Positions 7,324 to 63,677 of a DNA stretch of 64,000 nt are shown in pieces. The translations under genes were made by a program, and so were the position numbers. The notes beneath the pieces are model-generated. The model searched no databases. It was not told the DNA's origin and saw nothing but the letters and a program-made list of their open reading frames with translations. The number at the start of each line of letters is the position of its first letter. The stretch's first letter is position 1. Source of the DNA: Escherichia phage MN04; the sequence record MT129654.1, one strand, 5' to 3'.

Positions 7324-7397
7324 GGCCCTGTAGCTGGACGGTCAAGCGAGCGACTCATAATCGCTGGATGGTGGTTCGATTCCACCCAGGGCCACCA
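7324..7397 (+). tRNA. tRNA with anticodon CAU (Met, or Ile2 if lysidine-modified), CCA encoded
   Basis: Acceptor stem GGCCCTG/CAGGGCC, anticodon stem AGCGA/TCGCT with loop CTCATAA, T-arm GGTGG-TTCGATT-CCACC. Confidence 0.8.
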
Positions 7398-7401
7398 ATT
7401 T

Positions 7402-7476
7402 GGATGTGTAGCTCAGTGGTAGAGCAGTTGACTGTTAATCAATTGGTCCATGGTTCGAATCCATGCATGTCCGCCA
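7402..7476 (+). tRNA. tRNA-Asn (anticodon GTT), CCA encoded
   Basis: D-arm GCTCAGTGGTAGAGC, anticodon loop CTGTTAA, T-arm CATGG-TTCGAAT-CCATG, acceptor with two G-U pairs. Confidence 0.75.
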
Positions 7477-7480
7477 AATA

Positions 7481-7556
7481 CGAGGCATAGCTCAGAAGGA
7501 AGAGCAACGGTCTTCTAAACCGTAGGTCGTAGGTTCGATCCCTACTGTCTCGACCA
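7481..7556 (+). tRNA. tRNA-Arg (anticodon TCT), CCA encoded
   Basis: D-arm GCTCAGAAGGAAGAGC, anticodon stem ACGGT/ACCGT with loop CTTCTAA, T-arm GTAGG-TTCGATC-CCTAC; T4 also carries tRNA-Arg(UCU). Confidence 0.75.
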
Positions 7557-10020: not shown

Positions 10021-10023
10021 AAT

Positions 10024-10060
10024 GTTTACAACCCTCAGAGGACGGGGTATAATGTCCTCA
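10024..10060 (+). promoter_or_regulatory. T4-type early promoter, -10 inside a hairpin
   Basis: GTTTAC 10024-10029, TATAAT 10048-10053 between inverted repeats GAGGAC and GTCCTC. Confidence 0.6.
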
Positions 10061-10096
10061 TGGATTACAAAATACCAACCGACTGAAGGAAATACT

Positions 10097-10690
10097 ATGA
10101 ATACTTTAAAGAAAATTGTTGAGTTCATCCGTTCTAAACTGGGTACCGCAATGACTCAGAACCTGTCAATCGAAGACCAGTATACTAAAGCTGCTTCTAC
10201 CCTGATTGATAAAATTACTGAACTCCAGACTGCTCATGTTAAGTCTGTGAATGAAGAAAAACGCATTCGTGCATTGGCAAATGAAAAAGACCAACTGGCT
10301 GCTTCTAAAGAACGTGAAATTCGTAAACTGATTGCCGAAGGCGCCGATGTTCAGGTACATGCTAAACTCGGCCTCCTTTATCGTCGTACAGCCACTCAAC
10401 TTCGTAAGAAAGCTGACGATTATATCGAAATGCGTAATGAAATTAAACTGAAGGTCAAGGAACTTGATGACTCTCGCCAGGAACTGGCTGTTAAGCTCGA
10501 GTACATCCGTGAAACTCGTAATATGGCTGCCCTTGGTATTGCTACTGCCGATGATGTGGTTGAAATCGCTGCACTGACTAAGATTGATATTGAAGACACT
10601 CTGATGCGTGTAGAAACGTTTAAAGGCCCACAAGTTGGAATGGATACGACTTCAGCTGATATCGAAGACTACATTAATTCACTTAAGTAA
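10097..10690 (+). CDS. coiled-coil protein (197 aa)
   Basis: ATG 10097 with SD gaagga; heptad-rich sequence. Confidence 0.5.
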
Positions 10691-10696
10691 TGTTAC

Positions 10697-10720
10697 CCGG
10701 AGACTTCGGTCTCCCTATTT
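10697..10720 (+). terminator. hairpin, weak terminator candidate
   Basis: ggagac-ttcg-gtctcc, but the downstream T-run is interrupted. Confidence 0.35.
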
Positions 10721-10738
10721 GGAGGAGAGGAGAATATT

Positions 10739-11284
10739 ATGAGTTTATATGATGACCTGATATCAAATGTTGGCTGGTTTAAAAATAGTGGTCTTTCCCA
10801 TGAAACTAATTCGGTTCTTTATAGAATTCGCCAAGACCTAGGTTATTCTAATGATTTCTTAAGTCGAACAAGTAGCAGCCGTGGATATACTACCAAATTA
10901 CCCTTTATCTTTGCTTTAGCTGAAGACCTTTCTTTTGCAGAAGCTTTAGAAATTATTGACGTAAATCTGGGTATTCAACGGGTGGAATTCGCTGGACTAC
11001 GTTATTCAGTATACTCTTTAAATGAACCAAGCGATTATAAACAGCTTGTTGATGCTGATGATGATTATCACTTGGTATGCTATTTGATGTTAGAAAACGG
11101 TGACCACTTTGGTATGGTCGACCGCCGTCCGAGTTATTCGGATATAAAAAACTATGATAAAGATGAGCTTATTATTTTAGCCAACGAATACACATCAGAG
11201 AGTCGTAAACAGCAACGTAAACTTAATCGTTTTATTAAAGAATGCCGTGAATACGCTAAAGAGGTTCAAAATGGAGCGGCCTAG
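10739..11284 (+). CDS. hypothetical protein (181 aa)
   Basis: ORF with SD ggaggag. Confidence 0.5.
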   Translation: MSLYDDLISNVGWFKNSGLSHETNSVLYRIRQDLGYSNDFLSRTSSSRGYTTKLPFIFALAEDLSFAEALEIIDVNLGIQRVEFAGLRYSVYSLNEPSDYKQLVDADDDYHLVCYLMLENGDHFGMVDRRPSYSDIKNYDKDELIILANEYTSESRKQQRKLNRFIKECREYAKEVQNGAA

Positions 11285-11624
11285 TCTTGCATCACATGTT
11301 TATCAATTGGCTGAATATAATATTGGTGACAATTTATTATTAGGGATTGCCACCGGTATGCTTGGTGGTTTGGTTGGTCTGGTAATGACCACGGTTATGG
11401 CTGCAATCGAAGGAGTCATGCCCGTTGAGATGGGTTTCTATATGATAATCGCTCCGGCTGTCGTGGCTTATTTTATCCCTCTCGTGTATGATATTTGCCA
11501 TACAAATGCTTTGAATGCTCCCATCCGTAAGAGATATGCTTTAGAGATGGCTAATTATAATGAGTATGTAAAACAAACCAAACGTAATGACCTTGAAACC
11601 TTTATTAAGGAATGTAAATCATGA
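11271..11624 (+). CDS. membrane protein (117 aa)
   Basis: ATG 11271 with SD aagagg; two hydrophobic helices; C-terminal FIKEC motif. Confidence 0.5.
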   Translation: MERPSLASHVYQLAEYNIGDNLLLGIATGMLGGLVGLVMTTVMAAIEGVMPVEMGFYMIIAPAVVAYFIPLVYDICHTNALNAPIRKRYALEMANYNEYVKQTKRNDLETFIKECKS

Positions 11625-11911
11625 ATAAAATTGAAATTGAAATCCCTGAATACAACGACGAGAAATCTGCAGAAAAAGCTATCTATGCTCTTCTGAATAA
11701 AGTAGATACCATCGAACATGAATGTGAAGCTATTGCCGATAAGTACGGTATTCAATTCGGAACAGGTGATTATGGCTCAGGACGTACATACTACCCCGTT
11801 GGTTATGAATGCTCACAGTGGTTTAAAGATGAAATTGAAAACAATGGTGGTGAAGTTGAAAATGGCGTCGTTACAGTTGGTGCCTGGGTCTCCTCTTCAG
11901 CATTATGCTAA
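11621..11911 (+). CDS. small protein, member 1 of a tandem W-x-S-S-x-x-C family (96 aa)
   Basis: ORF ends ...AWVSSSALC; followed by TAAGGA and the next paralog. Confidence 0.55.
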   Translation: MNKIEIEIPEYNDEKSAEKAIYALLNKVDTIEHECEAIADKYGIQFGTGDYGSGRTYYPVGYECSQWFKDEIENNGGEVENGVVTVGAWVSSSALC

Positions 11912-11920
11912 GGAAACGCT

Positions 11921-12202
11921 ATGATGAATGATAATCATAACCACCCAGAGCTTCTGGCCGCAGTAAAAGAAATTCATGAAGCTATTCGTCGTGCCGAGGA
12001 AATTGCAGACAAATATGAGTCCCATTTTAATATATACCCTGCTCGCGGTATGGGCGGCGACTATTATTCTCCTGGTGCCTTGAAAGCTGACCTTGCCCAT
12101 TGGGAAGAAGATGGTCATCCTGAATGGGCTATTGTTAATACTCATGACTATACAACTGACCTGGAAAATGGTGGTTGGGTGTCCTCTTCTTCTGAATGTT
12201 AA
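11921..12202 (+). CDS. small protein, member 2 of the tandem family (93 aa)
   Basis: Ends ...GWVSSSSEC; SD taaggaa upstream. Confidence 0.55.
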   Translation: MMNDNHNHPELLAAVKEIHEAIRRAEEIADKYESHFNIYPARGMGGDYYSPGALKADLAHWEEDGHPEWAIVNTHDYTTDLENGGWVSSSSEC

Positions 12203-12211
12203 GGAAATATT

Positions 12212-12409
12212 ATGTCTCGTGAATTAGATTGTGCAATCCGAACTGCCGCCGCAGCTATTGAAAACGTTATCCAGATTTGTAAAGAAGAACGCGAAGAAGC
12301 TGATATCTATATCGATGGTGTTCGTGACTTAGAACGACATATCACGCTTTATAATGGTTGTATTACTATTAGTGGTACCTCTTGGGTATCATCCTCTTAC
12401 GAATGCTAA
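12212..12409 (+). CDS. small protein, member 3 of the tandem family (65 aa)
   Basis: Ends ...SWVSSSYEC. Confidence 0.55.
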   Translation: MSRELDCAIRTAAAAIENVIQICKEEREEADIYIDGVRDLERHITLYNGCITISGTSWVSSSYEC

Positions 12410-12418
12410 GGTAATAAA

Positions 12419-12631
12419 ATGACTATTGATGAAATCGAAAAACAAATCCGTGAATTAGTACGTAAAGGCCAGTCCGTGGCTGACGAAACAGGTGAAGAGT
12501 TCCATGTTTCCGGACGTGGACAATACATTTCTCCAAAGAATCCGGAATATGATGATTACGAATGGGTCCGTGACGATTACGGTATCCCAGATGGTGAAGG
12601 TTTCTGGTTTACATCCTCTATGTCTTGCTAA
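12419..12631 (+). CDS. small protein, member 4 of the tandem family (70 aa)
   Basis: Ends ...FWFTSSMSC. Confidence 0.55.
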   Translation: MTIDEIEKQIRELVRKGQSVADETGEEFHVSGRGQYISPKNPEYDDYEWVRDDYGIPDGEGFWFTSSMSC

Positions 12632-12642
12632 GGAATAAAAAA

Positions 12643-12867
12643 ATGACCGATATTGATGAATTAGAAAAAGCTGCCCTTGAACTGGCTGCCCTGTATAAGA
12701 AAGTAAAAGATATGGCTTCTGCTCAGGATTTTGGTGTTGAGCTAGATGATTATGACGGTGAAGTTCGTCTTGAAGATTGGCTGAATAGTTCTTGTTATGG
12801 TGAAGAAGCTGGTCGTACCTTCGTTGCTCGTCCCGATGGTAAAATCTGGTACCCGAGCTCATGCTAA
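12643..12867 (+). CDS. small protein, member 5 of the tandem family (74 aa)
   Basis: Ends ...KIWYPSSC; ATG 12643 after SD taaggaa. Confidence 0.5.
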   Translation: MTDIDELEKAALELAALYKKVKDMASAQDFGVELDDYDGEVRLEDWLNSSCYGEEAGRTFVARPDGKIWYPSSC

Positions 12868-13088
12868 AATTAAAGAAAAGATATATTCGTAAAATAAACG
12901 GTCTTCGTGATTATGCCAAAGGTTGGCCGTTAAGTATTATTATGGCCGATAGACACCCACGTTATAATACTGAGATGACTTATTACAAAAAGTATGATTC
13001 ATATTGTCGGTCTAAAGCTGGTCGTTTAGATGGTTCTTATGAAGAATATTTTGGCAAAAAACCTACTCGTATTTCGTTAGGAAAATAA
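12861..13088 (+). CDS. hypothetical basic protein (75 aa)
   Basis: ORF overlapping upstream stop by 7 nt. Confidence 0.35.
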   Translation: MLKLKKRYIRKINGLRDYAKGWPLSIIMADRHPRYNTEMTYYKKYDSYCRSKAGRLDGSYEEYFGKKPTRISLGK

Positions 13089-13118
13089 TTTAACCACAAG
13101 GATGTGGTAGGAGGACTT

Positions 13119-13448
13119 ATGCACAAAGATTCAGTATTCAAATACCTTTTGAAAACAGATAAAGAATTCTATATGAATGGACAAGCTTTCTTGTTCATTC
13201 GTGGTAAACGTGAGATGTTTTATAAATGCGACCTCTCAATGCATCATCATATGTATCATACTCATGGTGAGCCTATACTAGGGTTTTCTGGTGACGAGAC
13301 TAGACGCATAGCTATGTACTACGACCATTTTAAGCTCAATGATTGTGGTGACAACGCTTTGGTCTGGAACCCGTCTTGGCGTCGTTGGGATACAGTAGAC
13401 AACGATAAATTATTTTTAGAATATTGCAGAAGTGATGTACAACTCTAA
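13119..13448 (+). CDS. hypothetical His-rich protein (109 aa)
   Basis: ATG 13119 with SD gtaggagga; HHHMYHTHGE stretch. Confidence 0.5.
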   Translation: MHKDSVFKYLLKTDKEFYMNGQAFLFIRGKREMFYKCDLSMHHHMYHTHGEPILGFSGDETRRIAMYYDHFKLNDCGDNALVWNPSWRRWDTVDNDKLFLEYCRSDVQL

Positions 13449-13492
13449 AAATACGTGTTACTATTACCGTACACCAACATGAGGAGAACATT

Positions 13493-13732
13493 ATGTGGTA
13501 TTACTCTCCACTGTCTGATAAGTCTGATGAGCCGGTACGAATTAGTCGTGCTAAGTTTAAAAAGATTTATGGCTTTGCCTATAAGAAGTCTGATTACGGC
13601 GTTCGTTTTGAAGATGCCCACTGTATCAATGACCCTTATGCAGAAGAAATCTCTAATGAGATAATTCCTATCATTAAGAATAATTCTGATGATATGTGGG
13701 AGTTGCATAACGATTATGTTGCTGAAATTTAA
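13493..13732 (+). CDS. hypothetical protein (79 aa)
   Basis: ORF with SD gaggag. Confidence 0.5.
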   Translation: MWYYSPLSDKSDEPVRISRAKFKKIYGFAYKKSDYGVRFEDAHCINDPYAEEISNEIIPIIKNNSDDMWELHNDYVAEI

Positions 13733-13753
13733 GTTTACTCTGAGGAAAATATT

Positions 13754-13921
13754 ATGTATAATGTTCTTATTGTTTTTGTTACTCACCCACAAGGTGGCGT
13801 AAGGCAGAATACTTCCCAAGTGGTCCAATTTTCTTCGGTAGAGGCTGCTAATCTAGCCGCAACGCGTATTGAAGCAAAAAAATCTGAACTGGGTAAATAT
13901 GAAGTAACTCGTCTTTATTAA
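13754..13921 (+). CDS. small protein (55 aa)
   Basis: ATG 13754 preceded by the conserved gaggaaaatattatg initiation region; not in the ORF track because under 60 aa. Confidence 0.4.
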   Translation: MYNVLIVFVTHPQGGVRQNTSQVVQFSSVEAANLAATRIEAKKSELGKYEVTRLY

Positions 13922-13934
13922 TGAGGAAAATATT

Positions 13935-14894
13935 ATGATGTTAGTTATTGGTTCTCGTGCACTGCACCAAGCTGGTCTGATTGAAAGTAAGTATATCGAA
14001 AATTCTGATTGGGATTTCATTGCCGACCAAGGCTCATGGAATCACTTTAAAGCCCGGATGTTCGGCGCTCATGTTCCTGTGGATAATCCTGATGTCCAGG
14101 CCTTTAAATGTATGTACAATGGTAAAGAAACCTATTTTGAAGCTTATATCGTCCGTGCCCTGACTAACGTACGAGAAATCACCGGCGAGCTTCAGGACGA
14201 AGATTTCACCTCAAGTTATCGTCTCCTGAAATATGCCGAAAATCATATTAAAAAGGACCGTCTTACGGGTTTCTATTGGGCCACACCTGATATCTGTCTG
14301 GCCATCAAAATGAGCCATCGTTATCTGAAGAATAACCCTTTCTTTTTGAAGACGATGTCCCACATCAAATACCTTCGTAATAAAGGTGTAACCCTGAATG
14401 AAGAGCTCCAAGAAATCATGCTGCAACGTCAGAAAGAAACGTTGAGCTATTCTCATCCTAAATTGGATGTAAACAAATCATCATTCTTTAATGACACCAT
14501 TTATACGCTAGACCATGACTCTATCCACGAAGCTGTGGCATTGGCTGGACGCCCTGCATATACCTTTTATATGAAAGATGGTTCTGAAGTCATGACCTCA
14601 CGTGAGAAGTTTGAAGCTTTGCCTGAAGCTATTAAACTGGCTGGCGTATATGAAGAAACTTGTGTGTTGGCCCTAGAACGTTCACAGGTTCCTAATGACT
14701 TCAATATTTCACCATCATTAAGTTTCTATATGGCTCTTGAGAAAGTGTGTACCTCAATCACTTCAGGCTGGTTCCGCGAGTATGCCTGGGAAAACTACCA
14801 AGCTGTAGTGAATATGTATAAGACGCTAGGTGAAAATGACTACATCAAGCGATTCCAAGATAACCAACATTTAATTCGTCCTTTCACAAAATAA
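13935..14894 (+). CDS. hypothetical protein with possible nucleotidyltransferase-fold motif (319 aa)
   Basis: Conserved initiation region; N-terminal GS...x16...SDWD pattern. Confidence 0.55.
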   Translation: MMLVIGSRALHQAGLIESKYIENSDWDFIADQGSWNHFKARMFGAHVPVDNPDVQAFKCMYNGKETYFEAYIVRALTNVREITGELQDEDFTSSYRLLKYAENHIKKDRLTGFYWATPDICLAIKMSHRYLKNNPFFLKTMSHIKYLRNKGVTLNEELQEIMLQRQKETLSYSHPKLDVNKSSFFNDTIYTLDHDSIHEAVALAGRPAYTFYMKDGSEVMTSREKFEALPEAIKLAGVYEETCVLALERSQVPNDFNISPSLSFYMALEKVCTSITSGWFREYAWENYQAVVNMYKTLGENDYIKRFQDNQHLIRPFTK

Positions 14895-63153: not shown

Positions 63154-63363
63154 ATGTTAAATCGTTGGATTAAACCAAATAAAACTTTGGATGAAATTAT
63201 CGCTAATCACGTATTGAAAAAGTACTTCTATACTCCTTGGTATACCGAAGTTATTGTCCATTCATTTATGATGCATGAAGACGGTTCTATCGAATTTAAT
63301 GCCGAAATCCGTCACGAGACTGATGATATTGATAAGGTTGAATTTAAACGAGGTTTCCTATGA
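63154..63363 (+). CDS. hypothetical protein (69 aa)
   Basis: ATG 63154 with SD gaggag. Confidence 0.45.
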   Translation: MLNRWIKPNKTLDEIIANHVLKKYFYTPWYTEVIVHSFMMHEDGSIEFNAEIRHETDDIDKVEFKRGFL

Positions 63364-63677
63364 TTCGTTGGCTTAAGAATTTTTTCAAGACCACTCCTGG
63401 TGAAGGTGTAGTTCCTATCTCAGGTCCGAAGGAATATGTTTATGTAGGCGATGGTATGATGGAAGAAGTTACCCGTCAACCTGAAAAGGCGGGTAATGTG
63501 GATGCCAAGGCTATTCCTTTGAATTCTAAAAAGTTTAAAGAACATCTAGAAGCTAGTCGAACAAGCCATATTGATACCACTCCTATTATGGTTGCGGCTG
63601 CCGTTAGTTCTTGGACCGGCGATTCGTCTTATTCTGACTCAGGAAGCTGTGACTCATCGTCCGGCTCGTGTGATTAA
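63360..63677 (+). CDS. protein with Ser/Cys-rich C-terminal tail (105 aa)
   Basis: ATGA coupling; C-terminus SSWTGDSSYSDSGSCDSSSGSCD. Confidence 0.5.
   Translation: MIRWLKNFFKTTPGEGVVPISGPKEYVYVGDGMMEEVTRQPEKAGNVDAKAIPLNSKKFKEHLEASRTSHIDTTPIMVAAAVSSWTGDSSYSDSGSCDSSSGSCD

Follow-up and report, generated by a model that had tools for sequence, protein, structure and literature searches.

A small-protein array with a conserved W-x-S-S-x-x-C end in Escherichia phage MN04 and its linkage to a predicted nucleotidyltransferase gene in large phages

In HEPN-MNT systems, a minimal Pol-beta-type nucleotidyltransferase AMPylates the product of the adjacent gene on a tyrosine of the HEPN RNase toxin, and in the gene clusters of ribosomally synthesized and post-translationally modified peptides (RiPPs) several precursor genes are served by one modifying enzyme, with lanthionine or AviCys rings formed from Ser...Cys. 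In Mycobacterium tuberculosis, the 68-amino-acid protein MenA1, which has a long N-terminal helix and is encoded upstream of MenT1, blocks the active site of MenT1 and induces its auto-phosphorylation (PMC10435456, PMC11375011). AbiEi/AbiEii (DUF1814), a toxin-antitoxin system of type IV that acts in abortive infection, likewise has two genes in one operon, that of the partner lying upstream and that of a nucleotidyltransferase of the MenT structural class downstream (cf. PMC3985639). Here we report that a tandem array of five small open reading frames (ORFs) of Escherichia phage MN04 (sequence record MT129654.1; the stretch of 64,000 nucleotides analysed is referred to as the window) belongs to a protein family whose genes are linked, in many large phages, to the gene of a predicted nucleotidyltransferase. 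This two-gene phage module is widespread, and no prior description of it was found in the literature on DUF7275/DUF7277, RB69 ORF names, phage MenT-like enzymes and small proteins with a C-terminal cysteine. The database entries concerned (PHROG 899/4882 for the small proteins; PHROG 2141 and DUF7275/DUF7277 for the enzyme) record no function, no C-terminal motif and no link between the families.

The region 11000-13500 has 89-95% nucleotide identity to JS98-like coliphages, and judged by its sequence the window is from a JS98-like Dhakavirus (Straboviridae), a T4-like coliphage; in the annotated relative UP19, all genes of the array region carry the label 'hypothetical protein'. The array lies on the + strand and consists of ORF1 (11621-11911; 96 amino acids, isoelectric point (pI) 4.3), ORF2 (11921-12202; 93 amino acids, pI 4.7), ORF3 (12212-12409; 65 amino acids, pI 4.5), ORF4 (12419-12631; 70 amino acids, pI 4.3) and ORF5 (12643-12867; 74 amino acids, pI 4.2). 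These lengths and coordinates agree with a first-pass annotation, which a model had made from the letters alone, and the five tails of the W-x-S-S type, with Val and Ser codons that differ between copies, are present as it had described them. ORF1 is of the type 'DYGSGRTYYP ... GAWVSSSALC' (tail AWVSSSALC), and ORF2 is a canonical member, 'ARGMGGDYYSP ... GGWVSSSSEC' (tail GWVSSSSEC). The divergent ORF3 lacks the GMGG hairpin motif and ends in TSWVSSSYEC (tail SWVSSSYEC), ORF4 ends in GFWFTSSMSC (tail FWFTSSMSC), and ORF5 has two motifs, an internal W-L-N-S-S-C-Y-G (12778-12795) and the terminal IWYPSSC. The tail motifs are encoded at 11885-11908 (ORF1, W-V-S-S-S-A-L-C), 12176-12199, 12383-12406, 12605-12628 and 12847-12864. 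About 1 kb downstream of the array, a gene at 13935-14894 on the + strand encodes a 319-amino-acid protein with a predicted nucleotidyltransferase fold, which matches Pfam DUF7277 with 264 bits (cutoff 27) and DUF7275 with 92.3 bits (cutoff 27).

The pairing of the small family with this gene recurs in other phages. The Erwinia jumbo phage Kaldavass (366 kb) has two tandem family members followed by the gene of a 303-amino-acid homologue of the 13935-14894 protein, which is likewise composed of DUF7277 and DUF7275, and the same pairing is found in RB69. Six family members of diverse sequence were looked up on metagenomic contigs of sufficient length, and each had a DUF7275 gene as the next or next-but-one gene downstream (6/6); the other neighbours on these contigs were unrelated (DnaB-type helicase and RecA, gp32/gp59, rIIB, PhoH, ClpB). 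In the reverse test, 80 IMG/VR loci were fetched through the enzyme (41-100% identity), 70 of which had small genes detectable with a hidden Markov model (HMM) upstream on the same strand, two of them with one further copy downstream. A relaxed tail pattern added five loci (75/80), with 1-6 tail-bearing ORFs upstream on the same strand; after deduplication, the number of HMM-detected small genes per locus was 0-6 (mode, two). The pairing is kept in Pseudomonas Otagovirus, in Phapecoctavirus and in Acinetobacter and Stenotrophomonas phages, and both genes are absent from the e.2/e.3 junction of T4. The small family and the DUF7277/DUF7275 gene thus form a conserved, co-oriented module in many unrelated large phages of Proteobacteria.

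The five array proteins share pairwise full-length identities of 24-35%. End-to-end matches to PHROG 899 were obtained for ORF1 (E = 8e-23, residues 1-96), ORF2 (9e-19), ORF4 (3e-14) and ORF5 (8e-10), and ORF3 matched PHROG 4882 (E = 2e-36). A family HMM built here recognized ORF1 (E = 4e-20), ORF2 (8e-24) and ORF4 (1e-15), and weakly also ORF3 (2e-4) and ORF5 (0.05). When homologues were added, several shared motifs emerged: I-A-D-E-x-G-x-x-F at the end of a helix, 'Y-G-M-G-G-T-Y-Y-P', which is rich in glycine, a linker of acidic character and the terminal G-W-V-S-S-S-x-x-C. These matches identify the five ORFs as full-length, old paralogues of one phage family (PHROG 899/4882). The first-pass annotation had taken the N-terminal sequences for unrelated and the proteins for variable domains with a shared tail; instead, they align over their full length and have one conserved fold, of which W-x-S-S is the predicted last beta-strand.

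When 1.84 billion representative proteins were searched exhaustively with the family profile (E <= 0.001; clusters at 50% identity), 275 clusters of the small family were obtained, nearly all with proteins of 70-120 amino acids, and the match nearly always reached the last residue of the protein. The exact end W-x-[SAP]-S-S-x-x-C was found in 134 of the 149 top representatives, among which the Trp, both Ser and the Cys are invariant, a Gly usually precedes the Trp and the two residues before the Cys are variable. The few exceptions had an extra residue after the Cys, a shifted spacing or an apparent truncation or frameshift. All five array proteins fit the terminal pattern W-x-[SAP]-S-S-x(0-3)-C, which allows the Cys to be the final or the penultimate residue; in the family, S-x-x-C is the commonest spacing, and the range of 0-3 residues reflects variation in divergent members. 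About a quarter of the members carry extra internal W-x-S-S units (e.g. D-W-E-S-S-Y-E-G-W-V-S-S-S-S-Q-C), and a few have an internal W-x-S-S-x-C-Y-G like that of ORF5. The pI is below 5 in 90% of the family members (4.2-4.7 in the array proteins). Scanning all six frames of the window for ORFs that end in the tail pattern gave the five array sites and no others, and in the 80 related loci the strict pattern closed 159 of the 3131 ORF segments on the + strand vs none of the 4287 on the - strand.

Searches with the small family gave nothing meaningful in Pfam, NCBIfam, PADLOC, PDB sequences or Foldseek-PDB. Its longer members have only coiled-coil N-terminal extensions, and no Rosetta-stone fusion of the small family with the enzyme was found among them. 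The weak match of T4 tk.1 to this profile (E = 0.0015) was set aside as spurious, because the protein lacks the tail.

Each of the five paralogue types has orthologues in other Tevenvirinae genera at about 35-67% identity (32-64% for ORF1), and their order is not always the same. Phapecoctavirus, too, has the ORF1 and ORF5 types, the ORF3 orthologue is RB69 ORF136c, and the layout of ORF5, 'W-x-S-S-C-Y-G ... W-x-x-S-S-C', recurs in other phages (e.g. loci L096 and L038). Because all five types have orthologues in other genera, the array is best described as an old set of subfunctionalised paralogues and not as a recent expansion. The first-pass annotation had compared it with the tandem diversification of phage anti-defence and host-takeover families; the genes do form a tandem family that has diversified and that lies in an accessory region of the phage, and the conservation of all five types argues against a recent arms-race expansion. 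Within Dhakavirus, ORF4 is the most variable (53-98% amino acid identity; L012-L021) vs 93-100% for ORF3 and ORF5, which suggests that one paralogue has undergone allelic replacement or evolves faster. In RB69 (L002, 2673-2979), ORF139c and ORF138c together represent a frameshifted copy of the ORF1 type, the remnant of which ends in AWVSSPALC; an intact form of this copy (101 amino acids) is present in Shigella phage phi25-307 (P0027).

An AlphaFold2 model of ORF2 was obtained from 61 aligned sequences, with a mean predicted local distance difference test (pLDDT) score of 84.9 and a predicted template modelling score of 0.73. It begins with a long helix (residues 9-32), continues with a hairpin, whose strands span 35-38 and 46-49, and a further helix (51-63), and has G-G-W-V-S (84-88) as its third strand; the pLDDT falls below 50 at the last three residues. 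Because of this strand and the low pLDDT at the end, the Trp and the first serines look to be part of the fold and the x-x-Cys end looks to be free. The small protein is thus modelled as an acidic domain of 65-100 amino acids in which an N-terminal helix and a 'YGMGGTYYP' beta-hairpin are followed by an acidic linker, whose length varies, and by G-W-x-S-S as the last strand. A Foldseek search of the ORF2 model against the PDB gave no match at E <= 0.001.

The AlphaFold2 model of the 13935-14894 protein (pLDDT 91.2) has a nucleotidyltransferase fold with a helical C-terminal subdomain, as in MenT and the AbiEii toxins, and its closest folds are MenT, ANT(2'') and LnuA. By its fold, the protein is predicted to be a MenT/AbiEii/ANT-like nucleotidyltransferase. 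G6-S7, D25-x-D27, E69 and K125 are invariant and intact in every partner-bearing locus, and they fit the catalytic signature of Pol-beta-type nucleotidyltransferases. The C-terminal 140 residues are conserved even more strongly (H174, D193-H194-D195, H198, C243, C272) and matched nothing known; D193-H194-D195-H198 was considered as an HD phosphohydrolase site and dropped, as no match supported it. Among 42 members, no Pfam match other than DUF7275/DUF7277 was found at E <= 5, and DUF1814 was not among the matches; sequence links to HD domains or other nucleotidyltransferase families were not found either, and the enzyme profile did not retrieve the MenT chains from the PDB sequences.

The DUF7275 family comprises 733 phage records (PHROG 2141, 'unknown function'). 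It is not confined to phages, because proteins of 508 and 571 amino acids with a DUF7275 domain occur in giant viruses of eukaryotes (BFVD; Sylvanvirus, Satyrvirus). Cys272 and His174 are kept in all 93 partner-bearing loci (93/93). Five distant homologues without small genes, from Gordonia, Streptomyces and Rhodococcus phages, a Vibrio Schizotequatrovirus and an Alteromonas phage (L093, L094, L097, L098, L099), carry Ile or Phe in place of Cys272 and lack His174. One DUF7275 homologue, of Acinetobacter phage phi1_092060 (L103, 2162-3115), was labelled 'DefenseFinder protein' by its depositors; the PADLOC models matched neither this protein nor other members. T4 nrdC.11 (L092, 436-1446) is annotated as a nucleotidyltransferase, gave no match to the DUF7275 HMM and is not a homologue. 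Presumably it belongs to the RlaP family. That family is described in PMC7824862, which does not name nrdC.11.

The module resembles MenA1-MenT1, and also MenAT3 (TglT-TakA), in that a small protein gene lies directly upstream of a nucleotidyltransferase gene. It differs in that there is no sequence similarity on either side, in the D-x-D motif of the phage enzyme vs T/S-x-D in MenT (the position that would correspond to the MenT phospho-acceptor is an Asp), and in the extra, extremely conserved C-terminal region of about 140 amino acids. The phage partner differs from MenA1 in its predicted helix and three-stranded sheet, its invariant W-x-S-S-x-x-C end and the presence of 1-6 paralogues. Unlike MenAT, the phage module is found in lytic phages, and toxicity or activity on transfer RNA (tRNA) of the phage enzyme would be expected only by analogy. 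AbiEi is a large two-domain DNA-binding antitoxin, unlike the small phage proteins, and the phage module is phage-encoded, not a host defence, and lacks a Pfam DUF1814 match.

The HEPN-MNT systems are a precedent for a partner protein that serves as acceptor substrate; the phage partner, however, has no HEPN features, and its candidate acceptors are serines. The aminoglycoside and lincosamide nucleotidyltransferases ANT(2'')-Ia and LnuA have small molecules as substrates and lack a partner protein, and their genes are not those of phages. As in RiPP clusters, several small genes with a common Ser/Cys motif stand by a single enzyme gene, and the S-x-x-C end resembles ring-forming motifs. Unlike RiPP precursors, the small proteins are folded proteins of 65-100 amino acids and not leader-core peptides, their Ser-Cys spacing is variable and their hosts are lytic phages.

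The reading that we prefer, tentatively and with somewhat less than even confidence, is that the small proteins are partners of the nucleotidyltransferase, namely regulators or pseudosubstrates that present their tail to it. By analogy with MenA1 and the structurally similar MenT1, the small proteins would bind the enzyme encoded at 13935-14894 and present to it the invariant Ser-Ser...Cys end, and the differing bodies of the paralogues would tune or direct the enzyme differently; expression would probably be early or middle, from translationally coupled copies. The pattern at Cys272 and His174 may be the signature of an interaction with the Cys-ended tail or of a metal site. Several points weigh against this reading. 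The number of independent lineages behind the correlation at Cys272/His174 is small, and overall divergence confounds it, so that it is just a lead. Three loci (L034, L073, L074) have an apparently intact enzyme and no partner within 4 kb, and the last small gene is often separated from the enzyme gene by several hundred bases of other small ORFs (median about 600 nucleotides). A simple antitoxin model, for which one regulator would suffice, does not easily account for 1-6 conserved paralogues per enzyme. The W-x-S-S of the tail, predicted to form a beta-strand and in some cases repeated in tandem, may have a structural role only. There is no sequence similarity to MenA1 or DUF1814, and a search of all PDB chain sequences with the family profile retrieved only designed helical proteins and no MenA1 homologue.

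Other explanations concern the origin of the tail or the role of the proteins that bear it. That the tail is a by-product of a nucleotide cassette composed of stop codon and ribosome-binding site, or of recent gene conversion, might be suggested by the Cys codon abutting TAAGGA at four of the five junctions. The first-pass annotation had already argued for selection on the peptide and not on an intercistronic cassette, and had named strict invariance of the tail codons at the nucleotide level, with frameshifts tolerated, as evidence to the contrary; this view is upheld, as 14 of the 45 tail codons vary among Dhakavirus orthologues, with only 3 altering the amino acid, at variable positions, and the codons differ synonymously between paralogues as well. 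The motif ends the great majority of top representatives, which share less than 50% identity, ORF5 keeps its tail without the cassette, and the array paralogues are too dissimilar for recent conversion, each with orthologues in other genera. Because the tail codons vary synonymously and the motif is conserved throughout the family, we consider the tail to be selected as a peptide and an origin from a cassette or gene conversion to be refuted, with hardly any probability left to it.

It is possible, though rather unlikely, that the small proteins are independent effectors of host takeover or anti-defence (acidic mimics or host binders), whose tail is a fold element or a host-directed motif; their linkage to the nucleotidyltransferase would then be that of a shared mobile accessory cassette, and the enzyme possibly one of RNA-end repair or modification. 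Acidic, probably early-expressed proteins are typical of phage inhibitors, some enzymes occur without small genes, and in some phages the module lies in accessory islands with SIR2, NAMPT/NMNAT, RNA ligase, PhoH or tRNA genes; moreover, phage Pol-beta-type nucleotidyltransferases are thought to serve RNA repair (PMC7824862). However, the same-strand upstream linkage holds across contexts that have no other genes in common, and tRNA genes were found in the flanks of just 9 of 101 loci. For this reason a tRNA link is not evident from position, and the proximity of tRNA genes was set aside as a clue to a tRNA substrate.

We also regard it as unlikely that the small proteins are acceptor substrates, with the nucleotidyltransferase transferring a nucleotide or phosphate to the Ser-Ser of the tail, maybe followed by chemistry at the terminal Cys, so that the products are modified effectors. 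Several substrate-like genes beside one enzyme gene would suit such a role, as would the nature of the invariant residues (the nucleophiles Ser, Ser and Cys), the predicted exposure of the very end and the additional W-x-S-S units within some of the proteins, in part accompanied by a further Cys, as they would provide several sites. The closest folds act on hydroxyls (the tRNA 3'-OH for MenT, drug hydroxyls for ANT(2'') and LnuA), and MenT enzymes can phosphorylate Ser/Thr (PMC11375011); with an Asp of D25-x-D27 at the equivalent active-site position, the acceptor would therefore have to come in trans. On the other hand, the S-S to Cys spacing varies in divergent members, which disfavours a fixed ring-forming chemistry, the serines lie in or beside a predicted strand and may be structural, and no RiPP dehydratase, cyclase or decarboxylase was found in Pfam scans of the ORFs at 10022-14894 or adjacent to the module in six other loci. 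More doubtful still is the fuller scheme of a phage modification system in which one MenT-like enzyme nucleotidylylates or phosphorylates the Ser-Ser of the tails, followed perhaps by elimination and attack of the terminal Cys, or by a covalent or metal bridge between the tail Cys and Cys272/His174 of the enzyme, to yield modified early effectors.

The array is located downstream of three tRNA genes (7324-7556), is flanked by homologues of T4 e.3 and e.2 and is oriented in the direction of T4 early/middle transcription. The gaps between successive ORFs are 9, 9, 9 and 11 nucleotides. As read from the sequence, the stop codons overlap a Shine-Dalgarno motif, TAAGGA, at 11909-11914, 12200-12205 and 12629-12634 and TAAGGT at 12407-12412 (all + strand), and a TAAGGA also precedes ORF1 at 11606-11611. 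TAAGGA had been ascribed to all five ORFs, which holds for ORF1, ORF2, ORF3 and ORF5 and not for ORF4 (TAAGGT). The end of ORF5 is overlapped by the start codon of the next ORF. These junctions probably couple the translation of the array genes. Candidate sigma-70-like promoters are found at 13734-13762 on the + strand (TTTACT-17-TATAAT), upstream of the transferase gene, and at 10025-10053; the number of such matches in the region is not above shuffled expectation. The T4 late-promoter box (TATAAATA) is absent between 8531 and 17146.

Four small ORFs occupy the interval between the array and the transferase gene. The ORF at 13493-13732 belongs to PHROG 3723, is a homologue of RB69 ORF135c and is the only one found in other genera (14 loci); those at 12861-13088, 13119-13448 and 13754-13921 are specific to Dhakavirus. 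The His-rich ORF at 13119-13448, which had been proposed as a partner enzyme, was dropped, having no enzyme signature or domain match and occurring in just 8 Dhakavirus loci. Kaldavass has a coiled-coil protein of 212 amino acids in the place equivalent to these four ORFs, and in one T4-like locus without small genes (L034, 2615-3567) a cluster of seven tRNA genes fills the space upstream of the transferase. An antisense ORF at 12455-12862 was discarded, as stops interrupt it in related phages and it is not conserved. The ORF at 63360-63677, to which the first-pass annotation had ascribed a related Ser/Cys-rich tail, encodes 105 amino acids of a different family (PHROG 2031, unknown function) with a low-complexity S/D/G C-terminus (SSWTGDSSYSDSGSCDSSSGSCD), lacks W-x-S-S and was not recovered with the family profile even at E <= 10; it was rejected as a relative of the array genes. 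In other phages (L007, 11706-12533; L096, 7165-7965; L098, 6556-7317; L011, 11021-12228; L102, 1-675), genes of the SIR2 family are found at 2-3 kb downstream of the transferase gene in three different groups, and genes of nicotinamide adenine dinucleotide (NAD) salvage (NAMPT/NAPRTase, NMNAT-Nudix) lie near it in two others. It seems that the module resides in islands made up of accessory genes, NAD-related ones among them.

This study ties one of the larger families among the hundreds of small early genes of large lytic phages that lack an assigned function to an enzyme partner and turns an array of 'hypothetical proteins' into a defined two-component system. The invariant W-x-S-S-x-x-Cys end offers a handle for mutagenesis and mass spectrometry. 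Should the enzyme behave like the MenT toxins, phages would have in it a tRNA or RNA nucleotidyltransferase under the control of its partner, with which to take over the host or counter its defences; should the tails be its substrates, this would represent a new kind of viral protein modification.

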